A stretch of 64,000 nt of DNA from Antedon mediterranea (Eukaryota > Animalia > Echinodermata), in NCBI RefSeq assembly GCF_964355755.1, contig NC_092676.1, positions 4,317,888 to 4,381,887 on the forward strand. The letters are read 5' to 3'. The notes beneath the pieces are model-generated. The model was not told where the DNA came from. It was given only the letters and a program-made list of their open reading frames with translations, and ran no database searches. The stretch's first letter is position 1, and every line of letters begins with the position of its first letter. The translations under genes and the position numbers were made by a program. Of the stretch, positions 3,045 through 27,894 are shown in pieces.

Positions 3045-3943
3045 TTTACAGTAAAACCACTTTAAAAAGCATATTTTTTAATGTATCAACTATGATTGAA
3101 TTATTTATTTATGTAAGATATAACAATTGAAAGTGAATCTGTATTACATATTAGATAATACATTTATTATATGGTTGCTAACAAAGAATTACATTTGGTG
3201 AAGACATTTTATTTTAAGAAAATAAGTTATTAAATTATATTTACCACATTTTTATAAAAAATGACAAAATGTTTTTAAGTAGGCCTAATCAATATTTCTT
3301 TATGTACTAATTTTGTCTTGAGAATATAAATTATTAAAAAATTGATACATAATAATTAAAAATTAATCTGAAATTGTAAAATTTCACAATATAAATATCA
3401 TCATAATGATTGTTATGCTAAATAATTAGTATTTGTTTATGTAGTGATTTTGTTTTATGATAATACAAATTATTAAAATATAAATATATATTTTATATTT
3501 TGACATCATTAAAATGTTGATACAATACAATGCATGTATTGTAGGATCAATTGTAATAATGGATTAATAATATGTATCAACATTTTTAAAATATATCCAC
3601 CATGATTGAACTATTTATTTTTGTAAGATATAACAAAAATGAATATGTATTACATATTAGATAATACATTTATTATATGGTTGCTAACAAACAATTTGAA
3701 TTTGTTGTAGACATTTTATTTTAATGAAATATAATAAGTTATTAAAATATACATTTTTACTTTAACATAGTATATTTTGACATCACTAAAGTACATACAA
3801 TAGAGTACATGCAGTATAACTACTGTATAATGTACAGGAATGTAGATATTTCAACATTTGAGGTGACAGAAAAATTAAAATAATTTTGAAACAGCTTGGA
3901 TATTGTGATTATACTTATACTGTGCATTCTTTTTACTTTTAAG

Positions 3944-4015
3944 GTCTTTGGGCAGGAACCAAATAAGTACATTACAAGCCAATGCATTTGCTGGTTTGAC
4001 AGCATTGGAAACACT
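3944..4015 (+). CDS. LRR cassette exon (LSLGRNQISTLQANAFAGLTALET)
   Basis: ttttaag|G...CT|gtaag, 72 nt, open frame. Confidence 0.85.
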
Positions 4016-7000
4016 GTAAGTGTATTGCTTATGTTTGCTTACTTTTACAATTTGGTTTTAATATAGAAATTAAATATAAAATTATTTTACATTGTTGGTT
4101 AAGCAATGATAATGGATTATTATTGTTACTTAATTGTACACTTTGTGATCTAATAAAAATATCTTTATAAATCACTAGTTTTTAGTTCATCCACCATGAA
4201 TGAACTTTATTTTGGTGTAATACATAATAATTCAAAATTAATATTAATTGTAAAATTGTATAATATAAATATCATTATAATGATTGTTATGCTAAATAAT
4301 TAGTATTTGTTTATGTTGTAATTTTGTTTTATGAGAAAAAAATCATCAAAATATAAATACATATTATATATTTTGACATTATTAAAATATTGATACAAAC
4401 AGGTGTGCTTGCATTAATATTATTATATAATTTCACAATTTGTGATCATGTAAAAGATATCTTAAAAATCACTAGTTTTTTGCTCATTCACCATGAATGA
4501 ACTTTTTATAATATATAATTCAAAATAATTGTTATTGTAAATATCACAATATAAATATCATTATAACAAATGTTACTAAATAATTAATATTTGTTTATGT
4601 TGTAAGTTTGTCTTATAAGAAAAAAAATTATTGAAATATAAATATATATTGTGATCATCTTATACAAAATCAATAGTTTTAGTTCATCCACCATGAATGA
4701 ACTTTATTTTTGTGTAATACATATTAATTAAAAATAATAATAATAATTCAAAATCAATCACTATATAAATATCATTATAATAATTACTATTTGTTTATGT
4801 AGTGATTTTGTTTTATGAGAATAAAAATTATTAAATATATATTTTATATTTTGACATTAAAATGTTGATACAATACAGTGCATGTATTGTAAGTTCAATT
4901 GTAATAATGGATTAATATGTACTTTATGATTCAATGATTATTTACAGTAAAACCATTTTAAAAAGCAACAATTTTAAAATGTATCCACCATGATTGAACT
5001 ATTTATTTGTGTAAGATACTAAATATGTATTACATATTAGAAAATACATTTATTGCATGGTTGCTAACAAACAATTTGAATTTGCTGTAAAATTTTCTTT
5101 TGTGAAAATAAGTCATTTAAATATATTTACCACATTTTTATTTTAACATAGTATATTTTGTACATGACTAAAGTACATAAAATAGAGTACATGCAGTATA
5201 ACTACTGTATAATGTACAGGAATGTAGACATTTCAACATTTGAGGTGACAGAAAAACTAAAATAATTTAAAAACAGCTTGGATATTGTGATTTACTTATA
5301 CTGTGCATTCTTTTTACTTTTAAGGTATTTGAACACTAACTTAATAAGTACATTACAAGCCAATGTATTTGCTGGTTTGACAGCATTGGAAACACTGTAA
5401 GTGTATTGCTTATGTTTGTTTACTTTTACCAATTTGGTTTTAATTTCGAAATTAAATGAAAAGTTATTTTACAAAGTTGGTTAAACAATGATAATGGATT
5501 AATATTATTATATAATTTCACAATTTGTGATCTTATAAAAAATAACTTAAAAAATCAGTAGTTTTTTGCTCATCCACCATGAACAAATTTTAATTTTTTA
5601 AATATTATATAATAATTCAAAATAAATTTTTATTGTAAATGTCACAATAAAAATATCATTATAACAAATAATACTAAAACTAAATAATTAGTATTTGTTT
5701 ATGTAGTGATTTTGTTTTATGAGAATAACAATTATTAAAATAGGAATATATTTTATATTTTAACATTAAAATATTGATACAATACAATGCATGCATTGTA
5801 GGATCAATTGTAATAATGGACTAATCATATGTACCTTATGATTTCATGATTATTTACAGTAAAAAGAATTTTAAAGTCAACATTATTTTTATTTGTAATT
5901 TATCCACCATGATTGAAGTATATATTTTTGTAAGATATAACAATTGAAAGTGAATCTGTATTTAATACATAATAGATAATACATTTATTATATGGTTGCT
6001 ATCAAACAATTACATTTGGTGAAGACATTTTATTTTAAGAAATTAAGTTATTAAATTATATTTACCACATTTTTATAAAACTGACAAAATGTTTCTAAGT
6101 AGGCCTAATCAATATTTGTTTATGTACATTTTTGTTTATTTTAACAAAATAAGTTATTAAAATATACATTTGTATTTTAACATAGTATATTTTGACATAA
6201 CTAAAGTACATACAATAGAGTACATGCAGTATAAACTACCGGTACTGTATAATGTACAGGAATGTAGACATTTCAACATTTGAGGTGACAGAAAAACTAA
6301 AATAATTTAAAAACAGCTTGGATATTGTGATTTACTTATACTGTGCATTCTTTTTACTTTTAAGGAATTTGAGATGGAACCGAATAAGTACATTACAAGC
6401 CAATGCATTTGCTGGTTTGACAGCATTGGAAAAACTGTAAGTGTATTGCTTATGTTTGCTACTTTTACAATTTGGTTTTAATCTAGAAATTAAATTACAA
6501 ATTATTTTGAATTGTTGATTAAGCAATTATAATGGATTAATATTATTACATAATTTCACAATTTGTGATTGTATAAAAAAATATCTTTATAAATCACTAG
6601 TTTTTAGTTCATCCACCATGAATGAACTTTATTTTTGTGTACATAATAATTCTGAATTAATCTTAAATGTAAAATTTCACGATGTAAATATCATTATAAT
6701 GATTGTTATGCTAAATAATTATTATTTGTTTATGTAGTGATTTTGTTTTATGAGAATAAAAATTATTAAAATATAAATATATATTTTATATTTTGACATT
6801 AAAATGTTGATACAACACAATGCATCCATTGTAGGATCAATTGTAATAATGGAGTAATATGTACTTTATGATTTTCTATAATTTCACAATTTGTGATCTT
6901 ATAAAAAAACTTTAAAAATCAATAGTTTTTTGCTCGTCCAACATTAACAAACTTTATTTTTTTGAATAATATTATAATAATTCAAAATACATTTTTATTG

Positions 7001-10000
7001 TAACTGTCACAATATAAATATTATTATAACAAATGTTACTAAATAATTAGTATTTGTTTATTTAGTGATTTTGTTTTATGATAATAAAAATTAATAAAAT
7101 AAAAATATATATTTTGACATTAAATATTGATACAATACAGTGCATGTATTATAGGATCAATTGTAATAATGGACTAATAATATGTACTTTATGATTTCAT
7201 GATTATTTACAGTAAAACCAATTTTAAAATCAACATTTTTAAAATGTATCCACCATGATTGAACTATTTATTTTTGTAAGATCTAACAATTGAAACTGAA
7301 TCTGAATTACATATAGATAATACATTTATTATATGGTTGCTATCAAACAATTTGAATTTGTTGACATTTTGTTTTCAGAAAATATGTTAATCAAATAAAT
7401 TTACAACATTTTTATTTTAACATAGTATATTTTGACATAACTAAAGTACATACAATAGAGTACATGCAGTATAACTACTGTATAATGTACAGGAATGTAG
7501 ACATTTCAACATTTGAGGTGACAGAAAAACTAAAATAATTTTAAAACAGCTTGGATATATTGTGATTTACTTATATTTATTACCAGCCAATGCATTTGCT
7601 GGTTTGACAGCATTGAAAACACTGTAAGTGTATTGCTTATGTTTGCTTACTTTTATCAATTTGGTTTTAATTTAGAAATTAAATGAAAAATTATTTTACA
7701 TTGTTGGTTAAACAATGATAATGGATTAATATTATTTATAAAATTTCACAATTTGTGATCTTGTAAAAACAAACTTAAAAAATCAATAGTTTTTTGCTCA
7801 TCCAACATGAATGAACTTTTTATAATATATAATATTTCAAAATGATTTTTTATTGTAAATGTCACAATATAAATATATTTTTGTAAATCAACAATTTCAG
7901 CCGTCGGGCTGCATGTTTTTTATTATATAAACCTGAATAAATAAATAAATAAATTATTACAATTGATCCTACAATACATGCACTGTATTGTATAAACATT
8001 TTAATGTCAAAATATAAAATATGTAATCACTACATAACAAATACTAATTATTTAGTATAACAATCATTATAATGATATTTATTGTGAAATTTTACAATTA
8101 ATATTATTTTTAATTATTATGTATTACAGAAAAATAAATTTCATTCATGTTGGATGAATTAAAAACTAGTGATTTATAAATTTATTTTTTATAAGATCAC
8201 AAATTGTAAAATTATGTAAATTATGTAATAATATTAATCCATTATCATTATACAGTTGTTGTACTGCATGTACTCTATTGTATGTACTAGTGATGTCACA
8301 ATATGATATGGGTAAATAAAAATGTATATTTTAATAACTTATTTTATCAAAATAAAATGTCTACAAAAAATTAAAATGTTTTGATAGCAACCATATAATA
8401 AATGTATTATCTATATGTAATACAGATTCGGTTTCAATTGCTATGTCATGGTGGATAAATTTAAAAATTGTTGATTTTAAAATTAGTTTTACTGTAAATA
8501 ATCATGAAATCATAAGGTACATATTATTAGTCCATTATTACAATTGATCCTACAATGCATTCACTGTATTGTATAAACATTTTAATGTCAAAATATAAAA
8601 TATATATTTATATTTTAATAATTTTTATTCTCATAAAAAAAATCACTACATAAACAAAATACTAATTATTTAGTAACATTTGTTATAATGGTATATATAT
8701 ATATATGGAAACACAAATATTTAAAAAAATACCAAAATTTATACAAAATATAAAAAAATTTGAAAAATTCAGTTAAAAAAATAAAATTATGTTAAAAAAA
8801 TTACAAAATTTATATACAAATGCATAGGCCTATATATGTAAATATTTATAACATAGCCATCTTCAGCGTGATCAGTTTAGGTACTGTTTAAATTAAGGAT
8901 TCTACTTATAGTAAGGGCAGGCGAGGTCTTAAGACGGTTAGTTCTACAAACAGGTATATTAATTAGGGGTTTATGGACTAATATGTACTTTATGATTCCA
9001 TGATAATTATTTACAGTAATTTTGTTTTAAGAAAATAAGAAATAAGTTATGAAAATATATTTACAAAAGTATATTTTGACATACTAAAGTATACAATAGA
9101 TGGATTACATGCAGTATAGTGTATTTACTGTACTACAATTTAGTTTTAATTAAAAAGGTAAATTAGAAATTGTATTTTACATTGTAGAACAATTATAACA
9201 AAATATTTAATATATAATTTCATTATTATGTGATTATAAGTTTAAACCCCACCTCACCAAAAAAAACCACAAACAACTGGTTTTTCGTATATGATAATAT
9301 AGGCCTAATAAATCAAATATCAATTTTCAGTTGTTATTTTACAATATAAATATCATTTAAAATATCATTTAAGTTAATTTTACTACATTTAGTATTTGTT
9401 TACTTTAACCAGAAAACAAACAAAAATAAAAGGGATAAATGCAGTGTTTATATTACCGTAAATCAATAGATAATTGGCAACTAACTTAATTAACTGCTAA
9501 AGCCCAAACTAGCAAGACCATAATGTGCATTATTTATCATATACTGTGTATTTTTTATCATTTAAGGTGGTTCATGAATGGTAACCAAATACACACATTG
9601 GAAGCCTATGCATTTGCCGGTTTGGAATCATTGACAGAACTGTGAGTATTTTTTCAATACTTGTACAAACTTCCTTATTTTTAAAAGAAACTTTATTTAT
9701 TGTTGTTTTAGAACTATTCTAATTACTAGATGGTACGCTTGCTTCGCTCGCGTACCATCTAGGTCGTGCCCACAGATGGTTCTCGAATACATAATAATTT
9801 CAGCGTTAAAAAACTGGCGATTTCAAATGTACGTACCGCAGGACAATAATGTCGTTTACAGGAACGGATAAATAGACACTGTGATTTATGTACTAAACTA
9901 AAATTAGCACCCTGGGATTTACTTCCGAAAGAGAAACTTGTCACAAAATGAGACCAATTGTTTAAGTCAAATTTAAACAAACTTAATTTGTGTTTTATAT

Positions 10001-13000
10001 GTAACATTAGGGTTGAGGGATGGAAGAGGAACAATTTTTAAATATATTCTTTATCCATTTAGTAACGAAATATTAATTGTTTTCATGTTTTACAAATAAT
10101 GTACCACTAAACCATGGAGGTATTTATACCCCCATGACTAAACACAAGTAAAACATTGCGATGTAATACTTTGTTGAAACTATCACCGTCCTAGTCGATT
10201 GAAAAGTACAGTACGTATAACGATACATCACTACGACGTGTATATGTTTATATAATGTAAAACAATTTGTGAAAACCACCTCTATTCGGGGCAAATCATA
10301 AATTCGATTTAATCGTCAATAAATATTAAATTATCTAACTCAACTTAATTAGTAGGCCTAATGGTTTTCAATTGTTTCTTAGAGCTAATTCATACTTAAG
10401 TTGGTTCCTACCCTACCCACCAAAGTTGTTCTGCGTTTAGGGCATGTGATGCACTGTAGGCCTATCCTCTACTAAACATTCTAGAAATAACGCGCTATTT
10501 ACCGAATTTTGCCCTTACGTAAATTTATATATAGATTCCAGTTGATACTGTATGTCATACTGCCCTAATATTGCTGTAACACCGGTGCCAATCAATTTAC
10601 ATCTAACAACATGAATTATATTATTGTTTATATACATGAAAATTTTATTCAAAGATCTCTTTTGTCAATACATTTTTTATTAATGAAAATTTACAATCAT
10701 ACAGTATCAAAACAACTTGGATGTATATGATTTTAATTACTATGAATCATTTTATTTTGAAGACGTTTGAATGGTCACAAAATCAGTACATTGCCAGCTA
10801 ATGCATTTAATGGTTTGACAGCATTGACAACACTGTAAGTGTTTTATTTAGTTCATAATACTTTTATAATTATTTTTTTTAATTATACATTTTAAAATAA
10901 AATTTAATGAGAAAAAAGATAGATGCTGTTAATTTTACTCATTTGTTCTTTAGAATGGTTCCGAAACGTTGATCTTTTTTTGTCATTACATTTTATTTTA
11001 AAGTTATGTAGTAAACGTCTCTTAATTTGTAATTATGAATTCCTTTTTAAATTATAGTTAAATGTAAATCATGCAATTTTCTAAATGCAAATTTTAATGT
11101 AATGGTCCTATAGAGTAATTGTTTCACTTCATTTAATAATTAATATTTGATTAAAACTCCGAACAATGGGTCTTGATGTCCCCTTAAGGAGGTCCAGTAA
11201 TATCATTTTCAGTATTTCTATCAAAATTATATTTACTGTCAAAAAGTATTTAGGTAACCGGTTACGGGATTATAAATACATGAAAAACCCCTTATTGTCA
11301 AAAATTGTCTGTGTGCCTATGGTACAGTAATATACGTTTATACAAATGTATTGATTTGCAATGAATGGAACATTCCAAATTATTTGGTTTAACCATACTT
11401 GCATACCTCTATGGTTTAACACAAGTAGGTAAATTGATAGACCCTTGGAGAATAAACAGAAATAGTACTGTAATGCTATACAATACTGCAAATAGGTATT
11501 AACCACTTTTGATCGCCATTTGAATCAAAAGTGTGTTGTACTGTTAGATATAATATAAACAAATATACTAATAAACTTTATCACTTATTATAAACACATA
11601 ATAATATAATACTTTATTACTGTCAGTTGTTTCTCAACGTTTGTATTAATTAATAATTACAAAAATATAAACGTATTAGTGGTCTTTAAATGTACTTTAC
11701 TATTTCAATCGACCATGAGACAGTGACAGTTTATAAAGTATTAAATCGGAAATGTTTTACTCTAATTAGTGGTATATTATTTATAGTATTAAGTAATGAA
11801 GGAAGAAAGTTTGTGGAAACAAACATATTGAATTTGAATTTAAATAATAGGTGTTTAAGACTATCTTCTGTTAGTTGAGGAACATAGATTTAAGTATTTT
11901 TAAAAATTGTATTTATTTTGTTAATGCAAATTTTTAGAATTGTTAATTATACAAAAAAAATTGTTTTTTTTTCCTGTCCTCTTTTGGAAGTCTGTTTAAT
12001 AAAAGGCCAAGTAATTAAATAGAAAAGACACACAAAGACTTTTGGGCGAGTGTCCGTTATGAGAGTTGTCCATTTACGAATGGTGTCCACACAGGGAGTT
12101 TTGGACCATTACTTAGGAAAGATAAAGCATCAAACTTTACAGTTTATTCTTTATTCTTTGTAGAAGGTTGGACGATAACCAAATAAGGAAATTGCCAGCA
12201 AATGCATTTAATGGTTTGACAGCATTAAAAAAACTGTGAGTGTATCTCAAATTTATCCCAATTCATTAATTTACGTTTTAGAATAATGACAGATTCATAT
12301 TATTTAGTTTATCATTTCATAATGTGATCTTGTAACAAACAATTAATGAGAGGCAATGATCACCCAAGATCCATGAAATAACACCTTTGTACCAATAGGG
12401 TTACATGCTCTAGCATAATTTTAAAGGAAAAAAATTCACAAGAAAAGTTTAAGACTAATTAGCCGTGGATGGAAGAAGAAATATAATCAGAAAAATAAAG
12501 GGGTAAACACAGTGTTTATATACGGTAAGGTGTAGAAATCAATAGATAATTCACAACTAACTTAACTGCTCAAGCGTAAGCTAGCAAGACTATATACTAT
12601 GCATTATTTATTATTTAAGGCGAATGAATGGTAACCAAATACACACATTGGAAGCCTATGCATTTTCTGGTTTGGAATCATTGACAGAACTGTGAGTATT
12701 TTTTCAATACTTCACTTTACCAACTTTCTAATTTCAAAAGAAATTGATTATTGTTTAGAACCATTATAATGTCAAATTATTCCAGTTAATACTGAATGTC
12801 ATATAGACTGCCCTAACAAACATTGAGTAAACAGTGTCAGTCAATGGAATTACAATGAACAACATGAATTATATTGTGATCCTTTTGATTCCAAGATATT
12901 TTTTGTCACAAAAAAAGAAATAATGACATTTTACCATAATACTGTATCAAACAACTACTATATATATATATATATATGATGTATATATTATATGATTTTC

Positions 13001-16000
13001 CTTAGTATGAATTATTTTATGTTGTAGTCAGTTAAGAAAATAATATCATAAAGTAGTTAAGTGTACTGTAGATTTGAATCCAATTTGTTTGCTAAATATA
13101 AACGAAATATTTAACAAAGACACTAAGTTAGGGAAGGGCCGGACATATTGATAACCTTTGTAAAAATACAAAGAAAACAAATAGGTGTTTTATATAAACT
13201 AAGATATTTGGTTTCTTTTAAAATAAATATTAATTTTAATATATAACTTCTTTATTTTACCGTTATTATTTATGGTATAGAAGTCTGGGGAAACACTCAT
13301 ATAATGTTACATTTTCTGATTTCATTTTATATAATTGTTTAAACAACTTAATATTATAGATGTTTAAAAGTTATGTTATATGTTTTGTGTTTTAATTATT
13401 ATCATTTGTATTTATTATTTATATGCTATATTCATTTAATAACTATATCGGCGTCTATTAAAAAATTATTTATGTGTTACATTTCGAAGGCCAAATCTCG
13501 CCAACCGAAAGCTTTTTATTTAGTCGTTTTGTCAAATAAGTAAATCATGTAATTATTATTATTTTACATTTTGTAAAAAAAGTCAAAAAGACTATGCATT
13601 ATATTAAATAAAATAAACAGAAGGGCGTGAAAGATTACTGCAATTTTTGACTAAAAATCATGATCCTAATACATTAAAAGTTTTAATTTCTTTTGTGAGT
13701 TGTTGAAGCTTCCATAACATGAACAAGTGTTCGTTGCTATAGGTGTTTAGACAATCTCCTGTTAGTTGAGCAACATAGATTTAAGTAGTTTTAAAAACTG
13801 TATTCATTGTGATAATGCAAGTTTTTAGAAGTTAATAATACAACAAAAAATGTTTTTTTCCTGTCCTCTCTTGAAAGTCTGTTTCAATTATTAAATAATA
13901 AATTATTTTACATTGTTGGTTAAGCAATGACAATGGATTAATCACAATTTGTGGCTTATAAAAGATAATTTTTAAAAATCACAGTTTTTAGTTCATCTAT
14001 CATGAATGAACTTAATTTTTTTTTTAATTATTCCAAATCATTTATCCCCAAGTCAATTACAGTTTTCAACAACACCATTACTAGATACTTTGGTTCTGTT
14101 TAAGTAAATTGTTGTGTACTAGATGGTACGCTCGCTTCGCTCGCGTACCATCTAGGTCGTGCCCACAGATGGTTCTCGAATACATAATAATTTCAGCATT
14201 AAAAAACTGGCGATTTCAAATGTACGTACCGCAGGACAAATACATGTCGTTTACAGGAACGAATAAATAGACAATTTGATTTATGTACTCAACTAAAATT
14301 AGCACCCTGGGAATTACTTCCGAAAGAGAAACTTTTCACAAAATGAGACCAATTGTTTAAGTCAAATTTAAACAAACTTAATTTGTGTTTTGTATGTAAC
14401 ATTAGGGTTGAGGGATGGGGAAGAGGATGGGTGCAAAGAGGAACAATTTTTAAATATATTCTTTATCTATTTAGTAACGAAATATTAATTGTTTTCATGT
14501 TTTACAAATAATATACCACTAAACACAGTAAAACATTGCGATGTAATACTTTGTTGAAACTATCACCGTCCAAGTCGATTGAAATAGTACAGTACATGTA
14601 ACGATACATCACTACGACGTGTATATGTTTATATAATGTAAAACAATTTGTGAAAACCACCTCTATTCGGGGAAAATCATAAATTCGATTTAATCGTCAA
14701 TAAATATTAAATTATCTAACTCAACTTAATAAGTAGGCCTAATGGTTTTCAATTGTTTCTTAGAGCCAATTCATACTTAAGTTGGTTCCTACCCTACCCA
14801 CCAAAGTTGTTCTGCGTTTAGGGCATGTGATGTACCGTAGGCCTATCCTCTACTGGTTTTACAACGCTACTCATGCCAGTGAGAGAAGGGTGATGATGTG
14901 GGTGGTTTAATTGCAATAATAAAGATTTGTACATAATATACGGCGAGTGAAAACTCTAGCTCATTATCCGTTTAAAAAAAAATGTATATCCAACCACTGC
15001 AGCACAGATTGAAAAAAAAAATGGATCGAATTTCTGTTATGAGTATACAGTACTTGCCTTTACGACGCCTGAGGGAATAGACACTTGAGGAACAGAGATT
15101 GGAATGTTCCATTCATCGCAAATCAATACATTTGTATAAACGTATATTAAATCTATCAAAATAATATTTTTTAAAGAAAATCGGCCTTTCTTCAACATTA
15201 TGATGCTGTACTCGAGCTGTTCAACCGGTTTTCAGCTATTAAAAACAATTATCGTAGGAGGAAATAGGAAAATGCGAAGCATCCTCGTATTATTGTGTGC
15301 GGGTATTTTTCAAGACGGAAATCCATTAGACAGTGTATACCACGATCGAAAAACACCCCTATTTGGGGCAAATCGTTGAACCTAAATTCGTTTTAATCGT
15401 CAATAACTAATTATCGAACTCAATTTAATTAGTAAACAGGGTTACATCAAGTGGTTAAAATCAGTACCGAAAGTACGAACCAACTTTATATACCATCGAG
15501 TAAACATTCTAGAAATAACGCGCGATTTACCAAATTTTGCCCTTACGTAAATTTATATATAGATAACGTTTATGTGTAGTTTGTATAGCGTGTATAATGT
15601 TCTCATATATTTATTCATTTCTTAAAATAGTGTACAAAAAAAAACAGATTTCTGATTTGTTTTATTGAATCCAATTAATGCTGTGAGAGCAGCGAATTAT
15701 TAATGTTATTATAAAGCAATATGTAGAGACAGCAGACTTTCTTCATCGGCATAATACTACTACTGTAGTTGGAAGCAGGAGTACTTGTTACTCAGTATAA
15801 CATTTTGATTTTCAATCATTCTGGAAGTATCCATTCATAATGTAATAATAATTTTACATTGCAGGTTAAACAACTATAACAATAGATTTAATATTATTAT
15901 ATAATTTTATTATGTGATTTTATAACAAATTAGTTACAAAAAAAAAACCCAAAAACAACCGGTTTTTAATTAATTCATAATGAATTATTTTTATTTTTTT

Positions 16001-19000
16001 GTAAGATAGGCCTAATATAAATATAATTTAAGTGAGATTTTCTACATTTAGTATTTGCTTATGTAGTGATTTTGTTATCAAATTATAAATATATTTTTTT
16101 AATATTAACAATTACTTTGTATTTCTCTTACTTTGAAGGATATTGCACATCGGGCAAGTCATTGGATATCGGTATTTTTTTTAAAAATTATTCTTATGAA
16201 TTTCTTTTGATTAATAATTCATTAGTTCAATATATGTACTGCAAAAATGAATTCATATATGCCATGCAGTTGTTTGAAATGTTTAATTTTGATAACACAT
16301 CTAAGTATAGCATTTAAATATTTCCATTCCGTTCAGGGTTAAGTGGTACTACTATCACTACAGTTTTCCTTAAAACAAATTAGTTTACGGCCATTGCGGC
16401 TCTTCTCCACGTTCAAACATTTGAGAGACATCTATTTATTTCCTTTGAGACTTATTATAGGCTAACATTGGCAGAATTGTAAATTGTTATAGAAATTTGT
16501 CTTGCGACATCAACATAAAGTCTAAAAAAAGCACAAAAAAAATAAGTGTAATGACAAATATGCTTAATTTTGTATAAAATTTAAAGTAATTGAGTAAACA
16601 ATTTTTTCTTTCCTTTTCACAACATAATTTAGGTGGCTCTGAGAACAAATTTGTAATTGTTTACTTATAATATTAAATATCAATGAATAAATGAATGTGA
16701 ACAAAACAAGGCTATCAAATTAAATTAATGAAATCACTTTTTCTAAACCTTAAACCTATTCTTAAAAAAACAAGGCCAACATCCATTAAGTCGCGTGCTA
16801 CAATGCATAGTGATACCGGACCGACCGACAGACCGACCGACCGGCATAGTGAACAATAGAGTCGCGTCCACGCGACTAAAAAGGCATAATTTTGACGAAT
16901 TTTTGAACTTTTTCATCAAAAACGTGCGCAAATTATCCAATTCGACGTGCTCGTATGACGTAATTTTAAGTCAAAACTGTTTAAAAGTTGGTAAAATTAT
17001 TAGAAAAGGCTGCAAAAACATAAATCCCGCGAAAAAAGTATGTATTTAACGCTACGTGCGCACCGCGCGCGTAAACATTTGCGCGCGTATGGGAATTTTT
17101 GACATGCTCAAAATGACAAGAAACGCGTAGAAAGTTGATTAAAAATTAATTTTGCGCATTTTAAAATTTTAAATGCGCGCGCGCGCGTAACTTTGTGTAA
17201 AACACACATTTTTTTTCAACAGAAAGTTAGCGCCTGATATGAATTAAACTTTTGCAAAGCTTCAATTTAAAATGTTATTTGGTTTTTGCCCTATGTTTAA
17301 TACGAGAAAATCGTTAAATCGCGCGTAAATCACGTTGCGCAACTCTAACGTCATTCAAAATAGGATGTCCACAATTTCACGTAAATGCCCACATGTTGAC
17401 AGTTCAAAAAGTACAGAAAAGCAATAAAACCCATAGTAATACCGGACCGACAGACCGACCGACATAGTGAACTATAGAGTCGCGTCTACGCGACTAATAA
17501 ACTTGCCTAACATTATTCAAATTGCTTCTTATACTTCTACCTTTTTACTAATTCATTTCTTATACTAATGTATAATCTTGTTCCAATAAGCATGATTATT
17601 TTGTGTAATCTTCATAATGAAACTTCATTCAGTACCATTTTTTTGTAAAGACCTGTTTCATTTATTGAGTTGCAGGCTGCATTGCAGCGGTGATAACTAA
17701 TGGTTTTAATATATTGTAGTTGAAAACATATAATTTACATCAAAAATTAAATACTGCAATTTTTAGTCGCGTGGACGCGACTCCATAGTTCACTATGTCG
17801 GTCGGTCGGTCTGTCTGTCGGTCCGGTATCACTATGCGTTTTATCGCTTTCTGACCTTATCTTGATATCAGTTTAATCTAGCTAAGTCAATTTTTCACAG
17901 TATATTCCTTATGGCCAGGAATCGATGTGGTTATGTTTTCCCGGTGCGCAATAACAAATTACGCGGTCTACGCACGACGATTTAACGAAATCACGTTTGT
18001 AATCATATCTTCAAAACCATGAATCACAATTAAATAAAATTTGGTACTTGTAAATTACAGGGCATAAATCATCATATGGCAATACAATTACATGCGTAGC
18101 GCATGTAACGCATGCGTACGCGCGCTTACAATTTTCAAAATTTATTTTCGATGAAATAAGAGTACGTTTCAGGCAATTTTAAGCGTTTACAAAATTGCCA
18201 TGAGTGCGCAGATTTTTGCGCGTTAAATGTTATTGCGCACTCTATTTGCCCGATTTCTGTTTTCTTGACTTACTTTTCAACTCGAAATTATGTTATACGA
18301 GCACGTCAAAAGTGTCAGGCTACGCACGTGTAAATTAAAAAAATATAAATGTTTTTAAACATTTCAACATTTTTAAACATGTTCAGTAATTTCGGTCAGT
18401 TGGTAGGTTGGTCGGTCGGTAAACACTAATGAGCACGCGACTGCAGCCATCTATATGGCCTTGTTAATTCATACTGAACTTTTTCTTCAGGCCTGGCGTG
18501 TGGGACTCTAATCAAATACCTACAATAGAAGCCAATTCATTTAATGGTTTGACATCACTGCTACAACTGTGAGTATTTTTTCAATTTGTATACTTCTACA
18601 AACTTCCTAGATTTTTCAAATACAACATATCATTTTAGAATATTTTTCAGTAGATTTTGTATCAAACAAAAATCAGCAAAACATGGCCAATCACAAGATG
18701 GTATATAAAACATCAACATCATCCATGGGTTACCAATGACATCAATCAATTTATCAATATAAAGCATAGACTGTTCAGAAAAGCCAAACGTATTGGTTCT
18801 GTATCTGCATGGGATGACTATAAGTCTATTTGTAATAAGGTTAAGCGTCTATGCAATAAGTCGTATTATTCATATGTCAACAAATTATTTACAAGTGACT
18901 CTACTCGTAAAGCTTTCTGGCGTTTTGTTAGAGAACGTAGAAGATCACCAGAACCCGTTATCTTTTAATATTAACGGTGTGAATGTTTTGTCACACCCTG

Positions 19001-19069
19001 TAATTGCTAGTTCATTTAATTAGGTTATATGCATGATATGCATATAACCTCTTGATTCTGTCAAAATCT

Positions 19070-19112
<43 letters not shown>

Positions 19113-22100
19113 TTCTTTCCTTAGCACTATTTGTCCGTGAATTATCTTGGCATCAGTTTCATCTATCTAAGTCAATTTTTCAGAGTATATTCCTTATGGC
19201 CAGGAATCGATGTGGTTATGTTTTCACGATGCGCAATCAAAAATTACGCGGTCTACGCGCGATTTAACGAAATCACGTTTGTAATCATATCTTCACAAAC
19301 ATGAATCACTTTTAAACAAAATTTGGTACTCATAAATTTCAGGTCATATTTCATCATATGGCAATACAATTACGTGCGTAGCGCATATAACGCATGCGTA
19401 CGCGCGCTTAAAATGTTGAAAATTGTCAGAATTTATTTTCGATGAAATTAGAGTACGTTTCAGGCAATTTTAAGCGTTTAAAAAATTGCCATGAGTGCGC
19501 ATATTTTTGCACGCGCACTGCGCGTCAAACGTTAATGCGCACTGTTTGTGTCCGATTACTGTTGTATAACCTTTCTTTAATAATATCATCATATTTTATT
19601 CACTTTTCAACGCGAAACAGCGTTATACGAGCACGTCAAAAGTGACGGGCTACGCACGTGTAAGTTAACAAAATGGTGAAAATATGCTAAATTTTAAAAT
19701 TAATATATATCGTTAGAATGCTCGGGAACACCTATTTTTTATTTAATTTTCTTGAAGGTATGTATCATATGTATGATTTATTATGAAATTAGAAGAACAA
19801 AAGTTGATTAAGTCATCATTAATGGCATATTAAATTTAACAAAATTAATTTCGACAATCAAACAAATTATAACATTTTCTTAGGCCAAAATAACAAACTT
19901 AACGTTAACTTTCTTCCTTAAGAATTTCATATATTAAAGTTAAAAGTATATAGTTTGACAGTGCATCATTTTTTTAAATTTTTAAAGATATCATCATAGT
20001 AAAACATTTTAATTCATTGCGGTATGTAATAATCTATCTGCACCAAAGTGGTTACTGCATAGTAAATACACGGTGGAATTTTTCTCCAACTTTTAGTCAG
20101 TTGTGTATGGCTCGATGGTCTGTGCTCGTGTCAATGGCATTCAAGGTACCGAGTTCAAGTCTCACCTTGGGAAACGAAATAAGATTTTTTTTTTATTATC
20201 CGTATTGTTCAAATTTATTTCTTAGTGTATAGATTATACACATGATTTATAATGAAATCTAGATAAAAAGTTACTTTATGTCTTTATTATTATGTAACAA
20301 CAAATGCGGTTTATGACATTATACGCAGAGGGATCTTTGATCGGATTGTGATACCGGCTATGGTGTTCGCGTTAGCAAGGTCCTATCATATATTATAAAT
20401 AATTAAAGATTCTGAGAAAATCAATCAATCAATATATCTTTTAAAAATCAATTATCTTTATTTAAATCAATGCATATAACCTATAATTCGTCATAGTGAC
20501 GAATTAAATCTAGTTATTTTTTTGTTTCTGTTTTTAACCCACCCATAATTCCCAACTGTGAACCTCCGGTTTGTAATGTCCCAATCCCTGAACTTTCTCA
20601 ACTTAACTTTAACGTCTACAATGTTGAGAAGGTGATTAATGGACTTTCGTCTAATAAATCTCCAGGTCCTGATTCCGTGCATCCATACATGAAATCTGCT
20701 TCCGAATTTATTGCTCCACCATTATTTAATTTGTTTAACTTGTCCCTGCGTATGGGAGAAATCCCCGCTAAGTGGAAAATGTCCCATATTACTCCTATAT
20801 TTAAATCTGGTGATACAAATGCAATTTGTAATTACAGACCAATATCCCTTACCCTATATGTTCGAAACTGCTTGAAAAAATACTGTTTTCAAGTATATCT
20901 GATCACGTTGCTTATAATTGTCCAATTACAGAAGCCCAGCACGGTTTTTTTCCCTCCCGTTCCTGTGTACCCAACTTACCAACCTAACACCAGAATTGAT
21001 GTTATCTTTCTCGACTACGCCAAAGCGTTTAATAAACTGCCCCACCATATTATTTTAAATAAGCTGGCTAGTCACTTCAATATCAGAGACAATGTCTGGA
21101 AATGGATCAAGTCATTTCTATTGGGACGTTCCCAAAGAGTCTTGTATCAAGGATCCATTAGCCCATCATCCCCAGTTACCTCTGGAATACCACAGGGCAG
21201 CGTACTTAGACCCCTTCTTTTTAACTTGTTTATAAATGACCTTCCCTCATCTATTATTTCTCAATGTGCATTGTTTGCCGATGACCCGATAATTTATAGA
21301 AATATATTTACTGTAGACGATGAAGTTGTTCTTCAGTGCGATCTGATCAGGCTTTCCTCTTGGTGTGATCTAAATGAAATGGAGCTTAACTTAAATAAAA
21401 CCAAGGTTCTCCACATTACAAGATCAAGGAAAGAGTATAGACATGTTTATCGTATAAATGACTTGCCTATTAAATCCGTATCTAGTCATTGTCATTGTCA
21501 TCTGGGGGTCACGATTAATAGTGAACTTACTGGGGATGACCATGTAAACTTAATTATTTCTCGTTCAAATCGAATGTTGGGTTTTATTACTAGTATTGCA
21601 GGAGGATCATCCCCTTCAGCTATTTTCTCACTCTATAAAGCTCTCATTGTCCCCATCCTTGAATATGGTGTCCCTGCGTGGTTGGGTGTCACGAAACCTA
21701 AAACCACGAAAGCTAAGACCCCCTAAGACCTAAGATCACGAAAGCTAAGACCCAAGACCTAAGATTACAAATATTTATCTTTCGCACCTGCCTTGTATTT
21801 TAACTCCCAACATTTATTCTGAATACCACACCTTAGAATTGGCACTTTTATGAAAAAGAATCACATAAAAAGTAACAAATACATTTTTAAATTGATGATT
21901 TTACAGACGTTTTTCTCGCACACAAACTGTTTGCGAATTTCGCATGACTAGCCTACAGTACAGTAGCAGTAGGCCTTCCACCATGTTCAATGTTTTTGTT
22001 TCTATGGAACGTCAAAAGAGCAAAAATTATATAGAGGGCTGAAAACTCTGTGGAGTCCATCTACAGTGTGGATGGAACAATGTAATATTAAAATTGTAAT

Positions 22101-24912
22101 GATAATAATATAATCATGCAAGTACGAAGAAATAAATACTGGCAAATAAATTTTAATTTAAAAATCATGATTTGTTTTGTTTTTCTTTCTGTTTTTATAC
22201 TTGTACTATTATTGTAGCTCTTTTGGCGCTCCATAGAAACAAAAACATTGAGCATGGGGGGAGCTCGAGGAGTTACAGTATACAAAGAAACATGTCTGTA
22301 AAATCATCAATTTAAAGGATTTATTATTTTTTTTTTATGTGTTTCTCCGTCTGAAAGTACTTATAAATCCTAATTTTAAAGTGTGGTATTCAGGATAAAG
22401 TTCGTCAACAAATTTGGAGTCAAAATACAAGAAAGGCAGGTGCGTAAGAAAAACATCCTCTGAACCAACACAATGGAGTAAATATATACCAACAAACAAC
22501 CCGTCAAGTTTGTTTGTTGTAAAGAAAAAAATATACATTTACTCAACGGGCGAAAATAATGTGAGTTTATCTATGTTTTGCGGTAGTATTTAATTATATT
22601 TATGGTAATAAATGAAACCTACTGTGTTTAAAATTATGTATGGATAAACAAGTATTGTTTTTAAGCTGTAGTATATCTTAGAATTTGTAATCTTAGGTCT
22701 TGGGTCTTAGCTTTCGTGATCTTAGGTCTTAGGGGTCTTAGCTTTCGTGGTCTTAGGTTTTGTGACACCCCTGCGTGGTTGCCTCGAACCAAAAAACTTA
22801 CGGAACGTATCGAGGCAGTCCAGCGAAGGGCTACTAGGCTTGTCCTTAAACAAACAAGAGGTGAAATGGAATACGAGGAACGTCTCACTAAGCTAAATTG
22901 ACCAACAGTACTCTCTAATCGAAGAAATTATCTTCTGTTATCCTTTGTTTGTAAATCACTTATGGAACGGTTGATTGTAGTAGGCTAGTATTCGTCAATC
23001 TGTAGTTGTTAATGGCCGTCATCTTGATACACTTAAGTTCATTCATCACTATGCTCGAACCAATTGTCTTCATCATTCCGCTATTAACATATTCCCTAGG
23101 TTATGGGAAGAAATTCTTTAATTTTAGACAGTTTTCCAACATTTTTAAATTCACTTAAATCCCATGTTTTATATTGACTTTGTTGAATCGACTATAAAGT
23201 ATTTTATCCTTTTATTTTATATTGACACTGTTGATTCGTCTATTTGTTATATAAATATTTTTATATAGTTTTTTATATATCATTGTTGTTACATTTGGGA
23301 GTAGGTACGGAACCTGAACTCTTATTATAGTGATTAGGTTCACTTTTAGGTTCCTGCCTACTCCCTTAGTTTCTGTGTTTTTGTATGTTTGTAACTGGTT
23401 TTTGGCAATAAATAATAATAATAATAATAATAATATTTCTTAATACATGGTCTGCTACTTGCTTAATACTACATTGTTTTACCTTGAAGGTGGTTGAGAG
23501 ATTTCAAGATAAGTACATTGCCAGCAAATGCATTTTTTGGTTTAACTGCATTGACATTACTGTGAGTATTTTTTCATGTTATATACTTTATAATTATAAT
23601 TGAATTACTTCATAACATTTTAATTTATGTTATAAGTAAATTTAATATAGTGCTGTAACAAATAATGTATAACATCTAATTCCTTGATATAAAGACTATT
23701 TTAACGTAACAAAGATTTCTGTATTTAAAAAATTGTATTTTATACAAACAAAATGTTTTCCTGTCCTCTTATGGAAATATTTGAGATGATTTAAGATGGT
23801 ACCAGTACAGGGAAAGTAATTTCAATCTTCCCTAATGGTACATACCAATGCACTATATTGAATAAAAAGGACGCACAGACTTTTACGTGAGTATCCGTTA
23901 TGAGGTGTCAATTTACAGGTGGTGTCCACAGAACGTTTTAACTGTATTATGGACCATATCTGAATAAGGCATAGGAAAAGTAAAGCGGACACAATTTCTT
24001 GGATATTTTAATTTCTTTTTGACTGCGTATTCTTTATTGTAGGAGGTTGGACAATAACCAAATAAGGAAATTGCCAGCAAATGTATTTAATGGTTTGACA
24101 GCGTTAACAGAACTGTGAGTATAATATCTTAACCAATTTATCCCAAATCACTACATTGTACAATAAACATGCATGTAGTTTATCATTTTATAATGTGATC
24201 TTGTAACAAAGTGTAATTGAATTTTAATGAGAGATGATGAACCTGGAACCACTGGTCAACTTGCCTGAAATCACACTTTTTACTATAAAAGGGTTAATAT
24301 TCTCTAGCATAAAGGCTAACATTTACATGGTGGGCAAGTAAAGCTTAAAACTACTTAGCGTAGTGGTTTTGGTTGCCAACAAAGCTGTAAATGGAAATTG
24401 AACTTATAAAAACTTTAACCTGAACCAAAAATAAAAGGGGTAAATGCAGTGTTTATATTAAATAATTAGATAATTTGCAACTAACTTAATTAACTGCTCA
24501 AGCCCAAACTAGCAATACCATACTGTGCATTATTTATCATTTAAGGTGGATGGACGGTAACCAAATAAGTACATTGGAAGCCTATGCATTTGCCGGTTTG
24601 GAATCGTTGACGGAACTGTGAGTATTTTTCAATACATTCTAATTTCAAAAGAAATTGATTGTGGTTGTAGAAGCATTTTAATTATTCCAATTAATATTGA
24701 ATGTCATATGGACTGCCCTAACAAACATTGAGTAAACACCAGTGTCAGTCAATGGAATTACAATGAACAACATGAATTATGTTGTGATCATTTTGATTCC
24801 AAGATATTTTTTGTCACAAAAAAAAGAATGAGATCTTACCATATACTGAATCAAACAAATTATATAAAAAAATTCTTTTAATTGTCACATAAATATTTAA
24901 ATTCAATTTGAC

Positions 24913-24955
<43 letters not shown>

Positions 24956-27894
24956 GCAAAAAAAAATTTGTCTTTTTATAAAGTGAAAACATTATTTTTT
25001 TTCACTTTTTTTTCCTACAGAAGTGAATAACTTTATTAAAATTACAAAATGGCCTATTCAAAGACTGATATAGGGGACAATTACATCTTTAAACAAAACA
25101 TATTTTTCAATAAACAAATATATAATTAATTGTCTATTTATTCATCTTTTAACAGGAACTTAGAGAACAACGCTATAACTATCATAGATGCTGAGGCATT
25201 CTCTTCTTTTGCTTCATCACTTTTAATTTTGTAAGTTAACATTATGTAATATATAATTTGCATGTTATTGCCTTCCTGAATGTCCACAACACATAATTAC
25301 GATGACTTGGTTTGTATCAGGATCAGGGGGACATTCCCCTTTGACTGCCTCAGTTGAATTATTTTTAACAATATTGGTGCGTGTGATTTACCACTAAATT
25401 AAAAAATGTTCCCCATTCCATATATCATACAGTAGATGCACACCTGAGAACACATGACTCCGCTACATGCTTATATAATCAGAGCAATGTGTAACTATTA
25501 AGCAATAGTAGAATTATAGAAGAAAGGATAATTGTAAAGCTTGGCACTCTTGCCCCTACCGGCATAAATGTACAATTTAGATCTTTTAAACATTAATTTT
25601 GCCAGAGACATTCACATATTAACAAAATTCACACTTGAAGTTTTTGTCTTTGTTTAAATGTCCTGCTTTATAAGCAACCATTTCTGCTTTGTACCCCAAA
25701 GCTTTTGGAGGCGTGCATTTATAACTATGCCTTTTGTTTTGTTAACATCTTTGATTGGCTGATTTGTTTTATTATGTAATTTTGTGAGTTATATATGTTA
25801 TCCTTTGTTACAATTCTCTTCGCTATGCCCGAAACATGTCGTAAAAATAAACTTATATTGAGGCAGTTTTAGCTTACTTGATCTTGATTTTTTTTCTATA
25901 TCCTGCCTATATACAGCTCTTTGATTTATATTAAGCAATAGTGTTAGTTATCTTTACATGGTCATGTGACAAAACACCTTTCAAACTACTGAAGCTACCA
26001 AAAACTAAAACTCTGTCTACACTATCAAACTAGTTCAAGAACAAAATGTGTCATGTGCCCAAATATGGTAGTAATATGACATAATCGTGTCCACATGGGC
26101 ACATCAAATTGTTTTCACATAAAGTTTGATAGTTTAGCTTTAACCTATTTTGTGTTGTTCACCCACACAAATCTAAATTATTATTCGCTCTGAATAGTAT
26201 TATAATATTAATATGTACATCATATATTAAGTAATGAAGGAATTAAAAAGTGTGAAAACAAACTTATTGAGTTTGAATTTATTGGTTTTTTTTTAGAAAC
26301 TTAAAAGGTAACAAGTTACAGGTTTACAGGGACAGGACCTTTCAACAATTGATAAGCTTAAACGAATTGTAAGTAATGATTTATTAAAATTTGGGCAACC
26401 CAAGTAACTCCCTTGTAAAAATAAATTAATTTATAAAAAAAAAATATTTTACTAATCCCAAAACCATCTGTGAAAGACGGTTACCACACTCACTAGTTAT
26501 ACAATCAACATGATGATTGTGGAAACTTACGATGATAAAGATCTGTCTTGTTTTTCAAAATTTAATTTTGCATGTTTTTTAAATTCACAAATGCGCCACT
26601 AAATTTGTGCTTAAGTCACATGAGCATTCTGTTAATCTAGTCGCAGTGCAGGACTGGAAAAGAAAAGGGAGATACATAAACTTGAATTAGTTGCGTGTGG
26701 GTATTTCAAGAATGCAGGTGGTTGACTAAAAAATGTGCACAAATTTCAAACCTTGAGAATGTTGGTTCTTGAGTATTTAAAAATTTCCCAAAATATAATA
26801 ACATTTTCTTTTAAGATACAACAAAATAATAACTTGGCACTTATTATGTTGCTATATTTGATTCTTTTAGGTACTCGGAATACTCTAGTCTCTGTTGCCT
26901 CGTTGGCGCCATCGATGTCTGCGAGCCTTCAGATGCATTTGCATCGTGTGAAGACTTGCTAAAAAATGAACTTCTCCGTGTGTTGATGATGATTATCGGG
27001 TTATCTTCGGTTATTGGGAATGTTGTTGTTATCGTTTCACGAAAGTTTAAAAAAGATAATGATATTAACAATGTTAACAAAGTCCAAACTACACTTATCA
27101 CCAACCTCGCCGTGTCTGACCTGCTGATGGCAGTCTACCTGATCATCATTGCCAGTGTGGATATACATTACAGAGGAAGATACGGAAAGGTTTCCAGAGT
27201 TTGGAGAAATAGTGTCCTTTGCAGTTTTGCAGGGGCTATTTCTACACTCTCTGGGCAATGTTCAGTGTTTACACTGATGCTGCTTAGTGTGGATCGAGCT
27301 ATTAACATTGTTAATCCATTTAGTACGAAACGCCTCAATCGTACAAAATGTCGAATCATTATCAGCTTCGGATGGCTATTCTGGATTGTGCTGAGTTTTC
27401 TTCCAGTGACAGCCAATGAATTAAGCTTATCGTATTTTGGTGACAATTATTATGGAAAGGAAAGTGTGTGCCTTGCACTACCTTTAACCAGAAGTCGGTG
27501 GCCAGGTTGGGAGTATGCTGTTGCCATTTTTGTTGCCTTTAATGGCGTCGGCTTTTTTGTAATTGTACTTAGTTATCTGACAATTTTCTTGTCAGTGAAG
27601 AGATCGGGGGCCACTGTCAACAGAAGACAGCAGAGAAAAGAACAGTTAAAAATGGCGAGAAAACTAGGCCTGATAGTTTTCACTGATTTCTGTTGCTGGG
27701 CCCCGATTATAGTAATGGCAATTGGTTCCGAGACGGGTTGGATGACGATTCCTGATGAAATATATGTTTGGGCAGCGACATTCATCATACCCATCAACTC
27801 CTCAGTCAATCCGTATCTTTACACAATTGCTTATATGTTTAAGTGCAAAGTGCGTCAACCGGCACCTGTACAGATTCCACTTAATACATTGTAA
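3944..27894 (+). CDS. LRR-containing GPCR, type C LGR (GRL101/RXFP-like); 5' end lies upstream of the window; exons 3944-4015, 5325-5396, 6365-6436, 9567-9641, 10763-10834, 12164-12235, 12620-12691, 18491-18568, 23490-23561, 24043-24114, 24546-24617, 25156-25230, 26297-26368, 26871-27894
   Basis: 13 AG/GT-bounded phase-2 exons of 72/75/78 nt, each one LxxLxLxxNxIxxLxxxxFxGL repeat, joining in frame to a hinge (SLCCLVGAIDVCEPSDAFASCEDLL) and a rhodopsin-type 7TM (NLAVSDLLM, SVDR, FTDFCCWAP, PINSSVNPYLY). Confidence 0.9.
5325..5396 (+). CDS. LRR cassette exon (LYLNTNLISTLQANVFAGLTALET)
   Basis: taag|G...CT|gtaag, 72 nt. Confidence 0.85.
6365..6436 (+). CDS. LRR cassette exon (LNLRWNRISTLQANAFAGLTALEK)
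   Basis: taag|G...CT|gtaag, 72 nt. Confidence 0.85.
7579..7623 (+). pseudogene. Dead LRR exon copy: acceptor and 5' half deleted, donor kept
   Basis: Only ...LPANAFAGLTALKT|gtaag remains; the polypyrimidine/AG and xLxxN codons of sister copies are missing; the cryptic AG at 7585-7586 would give a frameshifting 37-nt exon. Confidence 0.75.
7953..8690 (-). repeat. Inverted segment of the intronic repeat unit
   Basis: Reverse complement of upstream blocks (e.g. ATTATTACAATTGATCCTACAATACATGCACTGTATTG); the right end read on minus continues the sequence broken at about 7879. Confidence 0.85.
9567..9641 (+). CDS. LRR cassette exon, 75 nt (LWFMNGNQIHTLEAYAFAGLESLTE)
   Basis: tttaag|G...CT|gtgag. 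Confidence 0.8.
9726..10535 (-). mobile_element. Non-autonomous Helitron, copy 1
   Basis: Minus strand starts A|TC(TATATATA), ends hairpin+CTAG|T; no TSD; the paralogous empty site AATTATTCCAGTT is seen near 12776. Confidence 0.85.
10763..10834 (+). CDS. LRR cassette exon (LRLNGHKISTLPANAFNGLTALTT)
   Basis: ttgaag|A...CT|gtaag, 72 nt. Confidence 0.8.
11328..11560 (+). repeat. Internal fragment related to the Helitron family
   Basis: Reverse-complement match to about 48290-48515 (AATACTGCAAATAGGTATTAACCACTTTTGATCGCCATTTGAATCAAAA). Confidence 0.6.
12164..12235 (+). CDS. LRR cassette exon (LRLDDNQIRKLPANAFNGLTALKK)
   Basis: ttgtag|A...CT|gtgag, 72 nt. Confidence 0.85.
12620..12691 (+). CDS. 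LRR cassette exon (LRMNGNQIHTLEAYAFSGLESLTE)
   Basis: tttaag|G...CT|gtgag, 72 nt. Confidence 0.85.
14119..15563 (-). mobile_element. Non-autonomous Helitron, copy 2 (longer)
   Basis: Same TC/CTAG termini and hairpin TAGATGGTACGC..GCGTACCATCTA as 9726-10535; extra internal segment about 14855-15500. Confidence 0.85.
16769..17497 (-). mobile_element. DINE-1/HINE-like element(s): short complete unit 16769-16880 plus a longer unit to 17497
   Basis: Terminal hairpin AGTCGCGT(G/A)GACGCGACT, (GTCG/GTCT)n microsatellite, 3' subTIR CACGCGACT; body similar to 1530-1960. Confidence 0.65.
17762..18465 (+). mobile_element. DINE-1/HINE-like element
   Basis: TTTTAGTCGCGTGGACGCGACT 5' hairpin, (GTCG)n, 3' CACGCGACT then GCCATctatATGGC hairpin and TTGTT end. 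Confidence 0.7.
18491..18568 (+). CDS. LRR cassette exon, 78 nt (LPGVWDSNQIPTIEANSFNGLTSLLQ)
   Basis: cttcag|G...CT|gtgag. Confidence 0.75.
19021..20513 (+). mobile_element. Non-autonomous Helentron/HINE-like element inserted in the LINE
   Basis: 5' hairpin AGGTTATATGCAT-gat-ATGCATATAACCT, (TTTA)n, 3' subTIR ATGCATATAACCT, hairpin AATTCGTCA-tag-TGACGAATT (20485-20505), CTAG|TT. Confidence 0.75.
21684..22770. mobile_element. Mutator/Foldback-like non-autonomous TIR element with 10-bp TSD
   Basis: About 90-bp internally repetitive TIRs (GGGTGTCAC...CTAAGAC repeats); TSD CTGCGTGGTT at 21674-21683 and 22771-22780; removing it restores the LINE frame. Confidence 0.85.
21780..22450. mobile_element. 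Long-palindrome MITE nested in the Mutator-like element
   Basis: Arms GCACCTGCCTTGTATTTT...GTTTCTATGGAACGTCAAAAGAGC and GCTCTTTTGGCGCTCCATAGAAAC...AAAATACAAG..GGCAGGTGC; same family at 54435-55262. Confidence 0.7.
23490..23561 (+). CDS. LRR cassette exon (LWLRDFKISTLPANAFFGLTALTL)
   Basis: ttgaag|G...CT|gtgag, 72 nt. Confidence 0.8.
24043..24114 (+). CDS. LRR cassette exon (LRLDNNQIRKLPANVFNGLTALTE)
   Basis: ttgtag|G...CT|gtgag, 72 nt. Confidence 0.85.
24546..24617 (+). CDS. LRR cassette exon (LWMDGNQISTLEAYAFAGLESLTE)
   Basis: tttaag|G...CT|gtgag, 72 nt. Confidence 0.85.
25156..25230 (+). CDS. LRR exon, 75 nt (LNLENNAITIIDAEAFSSFASSLLI)
   Basis: aacag|G...TT|gtaag. Confidence 0.8.
26297..26368 (+). 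CDS. LRR exon (LNLKGNKLQVYRDRTFQQLISLNE)
   Basis: ttttag|A...TT|gtaag, 72 nt. Confidence 0.8.
26871..27894 (+). CDS. Terminal exon: hinge + 7TM + short C-tail of the LGR/GRL101-like GPCR
   Basis: ttttag|G TAC TCG..., in frame with ORF 26956..27894; seven hydrophobic segments; stop TAA at 27892-27894. Confidence 0.95.

Follow-up and report, generated by a model that had tools for sequence, protein, structure and literature searches.

Leucine-rich repeat cassettes with divergent predicted binding residues in an LGR-type receptor gene of the crinoid Antedon mediterranea

Architecture of the receptor gene

The window, i.e., the whole 64-kb stretch of Antedon mediterranea DNA that we analyzed, contains a plus-strand LRR-GPCR gene that reaches upstream to 3944 at least and ends at 27894. 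Self-searches together with a scan for splice sites found 13 intact LRR exons, all frame-keeping and in phase 2; ten are 72 nt long, two have 75 nt and one has 78 nt. One LRR per symmetric phase-2 exon is the architecture of an exon-shuffled LRR receptor. The 5' part of the gene carries the exons U1 (3944–4015), U2 (5325–5396) and U3 (6365–6436), each of 72 nt, in phase 2 and AG/GT-bounded. They belong to a plus-strand array of exon-plus-intron units (3045–7876) with AT-rich introns made of shuffled sub-modules, and whole units align at about 81–86% identity. This array also holds a broken fourth copy, U4 (7575–7623), in which the acceptor and exactly the hypervariable 5' segment are gone (48-nt gap), while the 3' part and the donor are retained; its flanks are about 95% identical to those of the live units. 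The intron modules of the U units recur at 7945–8720 in inverted and rearranged form, without an exon.

Downstream on the same strand follow the LRR exons B1 (9567–9641, 75 nt), C1 (10763–10834), A1 (12164–12235) and B2 (12620–12691), an irregular 78-nt exon (18491–18568), C2 (23490–23561), A2 (24043–24114) and B3 (24546–24617), a divergent penultimate LRR exon of 75 nt (25156–25230) and the last LRR exon (26297–26368). Within these older exons (10763–24617) a C-A-B triplet occurs twice, and both C exons have lost the ladder Asn, which is replaced by His in C1 and by Phe in C2. Another Antedon gene model, P0002, likewise has a duplicated three-repeat block. A single exon (26871–27894) completes the gene and encodes a cysteine hinge and a rhodopsin-family 7TM domain (Pfam 7tm_1, E = 7e-31; 108 bits versus a cut-off of 30.5), which forms seven long helices in the AlphaFold2 model.

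All coding exons except U1, i.e., 13 of 14, match the Antedon mediterranea RefSeq protein XP_071956203.1 (P0258) letter for letter and in order. The translation of U2 is found at residue 22 of this model, and that of U3 occurs both there and in a second gene model, P0261. P0258 starts at an ATG within a repeated intron near 5025 (5025–5090); from the sequence, this start is probably a prediction artefact. As the model begins at this intron-repeat ATG and lacks U1, the public gene models of the family are probably truncated at the 5' end. Searches for signal-peptide, LRRNT and LDLa exons, with queries that included the N-termini of two complete-looking relatives, gave no match within the 64-kb window, and the 5' end of the gene may lie outside it or be lost. 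Before the irregular 78-nt exon, the RefSeq model includes a short degenerate LRR-like exon start at 16139–16171. Residues 172–181 of P0258, which correspond to this irregular stretch, have pLDDT values below 50, and the model thus suggests that the stretch may be a broken repeat.

By domain content and fold, the gene encodes an LGR, i.e., an LRR-containing class A GPCR. Pfam LRR_8 was detected, and the hinge cysteines are invariant across 54 aligned proteins. The AlphaFold2 model of P0258, built from this 54-sequence alignment (mean pLDDT 85.6), had LGR4, TSHR, FSHR and LHCGR as its best Foldseek matches. Members of this receptor class are mostly familiar as conserved hormone receptors.

Divergence of the cassette exons and their introns

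The original prediction had counted 8 nucleotide differences between U1 and U2 and 7 between U1 and U3, and we obtained the same numbers, at exon positions 3, 8, 9, 12, 13, 17, 18 and 42 and at positions 2, 3, 8, 10, 11, 18 and 69, respectively. U2 and U3 differ at 10 nt. Clustering of the differences in the first 19 nt was confirmed as well, with 11 of the 13 minimum three-way changes located there (P = 2e-5). Every changed codon, as originally listed, alters the residue, and there is no silent-only codon. The sample behind these values consists of 13 changes in three exons that were selected post hoc as the most striking ones. The description of U1–U3 as the youngest LRR exons was not substantiated, as identity between whole units is about 81–86%, and B1 (9567) and B2 (12620) differ less from each other beyond the first codon.

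We assigned LRR x positions with a consensus taken from the passages of PMC11378527 available to us. The exon boundary splits the strand leucine; exon codons 1, 3, 4 and 6 correspond to x5, x7, x8 and x10, and codons 22–23 to x2 and x3. The six concave-face codons, i.e., 18 of 72 nt, contain 12 of the 13 minimum changes (0.67 per nt; binomial P = 6e-7), whereas the exon scaffold has 1 change in 54 nt. Divergence peaks at the strand positions x5, x7, x8, x10 and x3. In the P0258 model, DSSP strands E20–24 and E44–48 cover x3, x5 and x7 of U2 and U3, and the changed codons are, in the predicted structure, exposed x positions in or just after a β-strand. It is established from LRR structures that the x positions of the strand are oriented to the concave, binding surface.

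Taken alone, the lack of silent changes is a weak argument, because P is 0.024 if none of the changes was silent and 0.33 if two were; two of the 13 affect the third position of codons with several changes and could be silent steps. By the Nei-Gojobori method, pS and pN are nearly the same in the concave codons (1.5/4.3 versus 5.5/13.7 for U1/U2, 1.5/3.8 versus 7.5/14.2 for U2/U3), since two or three bases are changed in several of them. We hence rejected dN/dS as stand-alone proof, the changes being too few and the codons multi-hit. The older pair B2/B3 (12620/24546) has 6 silent versus 5 replacement changes, i.e., no replacement excess. Deaminase-type hypermutation was also rejected, as transversions account for 8 of the 12 changes in the concave codons.

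According to the original prediction, the flanking intron was more conserved than the variable codons. Strong conservation is confined to the intron next to the exon, the distal intron having about 0.24 changes per site. Among U1–U3, 8 of 169 sites (0.047) changed at -170 to -1 and 1 of 42 (0.024) at +1 to +43, whereas further out the values were 14/55 (0.255) and 46/192 (0.24); intron beyond -230 was left out because U3 is non-homologous there. Divergence thus drops roughly five-fold around the exon (core intron 9/211 versus distal intron 60/247, Fisher P = 5e-10). The conserved core of unit 1 (3774–4058, plus strand) comprises about 170 nt of upstream intron, the exon and about 43 nt downstream; equivalent plus-strand cores of the other units lie at 5155–5440, 6189–6478 and 7429–7667. 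Inside this core of about 285 nt, the concave codons form a sharp divergence peak. The proposed check, a comparison of substitution density in exon and intron, placed them (0.67) above even the distal intron (0.24), at 12/18 nt versus 46/192 (Fisher P = 3e-4). In simulations, this excess had P = 0.0008 at the distal-intron rate and P = 0.03 at a neutral rate of 0.39 per site.

Such a pattern might also arise under relaxed constraint, if the units were old and exposed strand residues drifted while purifying selection for folding and splicing held the scaffold and the near intron. The units are indeed 15–20% diverged in their distal introns, and the core intron is slightly GC-richer (0.27–0.29 versus 0.11–0.21), so that its mutation rate may be lower. 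Drift, however, would not explain concave codons that diverge nearly three times faster than the distal intron (P about 0.001), nor the complete lack of silent changes at about 12 silent scaffold sites. Moreover, conservation of the core is just as high around the dead copy U4, and the older pairs A1/A2 and C1/C2 have no such core, which argues against a general splice-signal constraint; B2/B3 have it downstream only, and B1/B3 show a milder form upstream. We therefore regard relaxed constraint as improbable.

The units also have a traceable history. All ten two-against-two sites in the distal intron support U1 with U3 against U2 with U4, which indicates duplication of a two-unit block. In contrast to this grouping, the exon scaffold of U2 agrees with U1 and U3. 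The U4 remnant is the Pro/Lys version, and its 15 residues all match a repeat that is intact in P0261. On sequence grounds, the incongruence between the U2 scaffold and U4, which concerns one or two sites, fits conversion of live exon cores. The U exon differs from the B and C exons at 4 versus 8 sites in nt 14–52 and at 9 versus 2 sites in nt 53–72, which suggests that it may be a B/C chimera; the flanks did not discriminate.

Relatives of the gene and sequencing reads

Eight Antedon mediterranea models, located on three contigs of chromosome size, are 97–100% identical to the 7TM exon. We built a quick ML tree from 66 7TM regions selected by hand (35 from Antedon, 15 from Anneissia and 16 others, without three Anneissia members that were short or isoforms). 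In this tree, 28 of the 35 Antedon models, including the present gene, form one species-specific clade (SH-aLRT 100), which is nested in a crinoid-only clade of 42 rows (SH-aLRT 99). Crinoids are the earliest-branching living echinoderms. The database label of the family is "GRL101-like"; Lymnaea GRL101, however, falls apart from the present gene in a canonical clade of 7 rows (SH-aLRT 100). No Ldl_recept_a match was found in P0258, P0261, P0267, P0003 or P0199, some of which are 5'-incomplete models, as compared with nine stretches in Lymnaea P0036. The complete-looking relatives P0199 and P0003 have a signal-like leader, a cysteine cap, LRRs and a 7TM domain. By tree and LDLa content, the gene is thus not an ortholog of canonical GRL101 (LGR type C2). 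When the LRR region of an Antedon relative served as query, the 104 matches were all generic LRR proteins.

P0261, which is recorded under two accessions on the same contig, equals P0258 from U3 through the C-terminus (619 of 619 residues) and has three other U-type cassettes upstream. In the six U-type repeats of P0258 or the window and of P0261, positions x5, x7, x8 and x10 take 4, 4, 5 and 3 states, respectively. By pattern, we extracted 72 LRR repeats (59 distinct) from 20 Antedon models plus U1. The 29 nearest-neighbor pairs that differ at no more than 7 positions have 113 differences in total, of which 68 are at the 6 concave positions, 42 at 10 other variable positions and 3 at framework positions; the non-concave positions 8 and 16 also vary family-wide, 8 and 10 times. 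P0267, with a 7TM domain 65% identical to that of the present gene, has 14 of 23 columns invariant over 11 repeats and six states each at x7 and x3, and its subfamily, as judged from these sequences, repeats the pattern of concave variability independently.

We compared the contigs of four public sequencing runs with positions 3700–6600. In the three DNA-like runs, 412–636 contigs per run fell on this 2.9-kb stretch. Among the 40 of 189 read differences listed, all six exon rows are in concave codons, one of them with a letter absent from U1–U3; several of the rows may be due to cross-mapping between units. At 5342 and 6382, the entire listed depth of run X1 shows a letter other than that of the U2 and U3 patches of the window. 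Summed contig depth in this run peaks over the exons at about 1100–1800, compared with 20–53 per listed contig, a sum that is not a copy number. In the presumed RNA run, the contigs include intron and those listed contain no exon-exon joint, so that this run is uninformative on expression.

An assembly or sequencing artefact in collapsed repeats could mimic variation of this kind. The region is highly repetitive, none of the contigs listed spans U1–U3, the window's letter is missing from X1 at two patch sites, and P0258 and P0261 could be uncollapsed haplotypes. Nevertheless, none of the differences shifts the frame, framework residues are spared, and the affected positions are those of the strand; U3 recurs letter for letter in P0261, and the same positions vary in unrelated subfamilies and independent read sets. 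Even if P0258 and P0261 were haplotypes, the cassette differences would be allelic and hence still real variation. We consider an artefact very improbable.

New residues might also reach the patch by templated micro-conversion, the alternative named in the original prediction, in which tracts of about 20 nt would be copied from diverged LRR exons at other places in the genome into the exon 5' ends, would produce patches of several bases at once and would then be sorted by selection. This would be compatible with our preferred explanation and differ in the source of the variation. Many codons differ at two or three bases, and copying from a diverged donor would give the near equality of pS and pN inside the patch. 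Framework codons are near-constant among the exons of the window (TTG in 7 of 9, AAC in 7 of 9, ATA in 8 of 9), and a donor from the family would therefore leave them unchanged. The reads suggest many related exon copies, and U4 is missing just the segment in question. On the other hand, the exons of the 64-kb window contain no donor patch for the variable segments of U1–U3, one concave change (x3, nt 69) sits at the opposite exon end, and the patch often differs only in part between paralogous repeats, e.g., solely at x5 and x8 between U1 and the first P0261 repeat. As far as the exons of the window show, copied tracts of this kind are rather unlikely as the origin of the differences.

Cassette diversification and candidate roles of the receptor

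Concave codons that exceed the distal-intron rate (P about 0.001) are best read as the result of conversion that homogenizes the core and of selection that keeps the binding codons apart. We therefore favor, at a probability of roughly two in three, U1–U3 as duplicated one-repeat LRR-GPCR cassettes in which conversion homogenizes the cores and positive selection preserves differences at the predicted binding residues. Unequal crossing-over would duplicate, lose or swap whole cassettes, for which symmetric phase-2 exons allow gain, loss and exchange without a frameshift. Gene conversion among many near-identical cores would wipe out differences in scaffold and near intron. Selection would favor novel amino acids at the binding face and act against any conversion or reversion by which the patch is erased. 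The product would be a germline receptor repertoire with one signaling module and many predicted binding surfaces. The diversifying selection of the original prediction is supported by a divergence peak inside a homogenized core that exceeds the distal intron and recurs at the same positions family-wide; as a clean excess of dN over dS it does not hold up.

A divergence peak in a converted background is described as the signature of selection under gene conversion in the passages of Fawcett and Innan (PMC3924837) available to us. There, red and green opsins likewise have highly divergent selected sites amid a conversion-homogenized background, with the difference that whole genes and kilobases are concerned, compared with exon cassettes of about 285 nt in Antedon.

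The VLRs of lampreys and hagfish consist of LRR modules of 24 residues, in which the scaffold is constant and the concave residues vary; their intronless genes arise by somatic assembly from flanking cassettes and encode no 7TM domain. The Antedon cassettes resemble these modules in their constant scaffold and variable concave residues, and the PDB matches to exon U1 include VLR chains. The present gene is nonetheless not of the VLR type, since it ends in a 7TM exon and its cassettes are intron-bounded spliced exons. Tentatively, and with the odds against it, one may picture a crinoid LGR-type GPCR as a VLR-like non-self repertoire, in which tens to hundreds of interchangeable LRR cassettes genome-wide would be diversified solely on the binding face, recombined, with alternative splicing perhaps involved as well, onto a near-constant 7TM domain and wired directly to G-protein signaling.

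Brown-algal LRR-ROCO genes were reportedly studied by Zambounis et al. in 2012, a work that Teng et al. 2024 cite. In the passages of Teng et al. 2024 (PMC11378527) that we consulted, these genes have 72-bp phase-2 LRR exons, intense exon shuffling and four positively selected concave sites. They share with the Antedon gene one LRR per 72-nt phase-2 exon and diversification of the concave face, and are proposed there to be immune receptors. They differ from it as intracellular algal ROC-COR GTPases, compared with an extracellular domain on an animal class A 7TM receptor; moreover, the exon boundary lies inside the β-strand in the Antedon gene, and alternative splicing is reported in these passages for ROCO. 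By analogy, exon shuffling of brown-algal LRR-ROCO genes is the closest parallel to the Antedon cassettes.

Canonical GRL101 is single-copy in each ambulacrarian studied, according to the part of Veenstra 2021 available (PMC8286064), and a single copy has been described for crinoids. It shares the LRR ectodomain, the cysteine hinge and a 7TM domain of the same GPCR branch, but has many LDLa domains, whereas the Antedon model has none and belongs to a crinoid-only expansion outside the canonical clade. A GRL101-like multi-gene cluster is also found in Biomphalaria, where, in the available passages of PMC12297450, the schistosome-resistance region SudRes2 contains 12 tandemly clustered GRL101-like genes that vary in presence or absence. 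These genes carry C-type lectin and LDLa domains, and the same passages do not describe repeat-level hypervariability; the validated variants of SudRes2 are placed there in a neighboring Zn-RING-IAP gene. In the literature outside subscription papers and supplements, we found no report of the crinoid expansion or of cassette- or repeat-level selection in GRL101-like or LGR-type GPCRs. Two features go beyond the original prediction: the exon core looks homogenized by ordinary conversion, and the gene is part of a large recent family.

The family likely comprises fast-diversifying recognition receptors and, by analogy with these systems, possibly acts in immune defense. The usual cause of such a signature is an antagonistic partner, e.g., a pathogen or parasite. 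For the ligand, we would give pathogen, parasite or other non-self proteins an even chance on this analogy. Chemosensory or conspecific cues are a less probable but live alternative, as the passages seen of PMC6267866 and PMC13403566 describe an enrichment of GRL101-like transcripts in the sensory tentacles of Acanthaster and Charonia. Other roles for the receptor appear unlikely. A young species-specific family with constant signaling domains and hypervariable cassettes points to an arms-race role for the LGR class, and its way of building LRR diversity parallels that of brown-algal ROCO genes and agnathan VLRs. It further offers a system in which to test the immune role that has been suggested for the GRL101-like clusters of snails resistant to schistosomes.

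Mobile and repetitive elements occupy further parts of the window. LINE-type reverse transcriptase/endonuclease fragments lie at 1–1490 and at 20500–21726, the second in the intron before exon C2. Inverted copies of a non-coding repeat (77–80% alike) are found upstream of the U array (1639–2102) and inside the gene (16899–17360). An LTR-retrotransposon-like element occupies 33781–47400 on the minus strand, with reverse transcriptase/RNase H at 41967–44729, an integrase-like ORF at 36256–37296 and a 300-nt repeat that is 100% identical at 33781 and 46120. Inside this element lie a DDE_Tnp_4 transposase ORF (37862–38728) and a LINE-like fragment. An open frame at 56813–57097, for which Pfam gave only a weak unrelated match, has an end that resembles a COMM-domain (COMMD2-like) exon.
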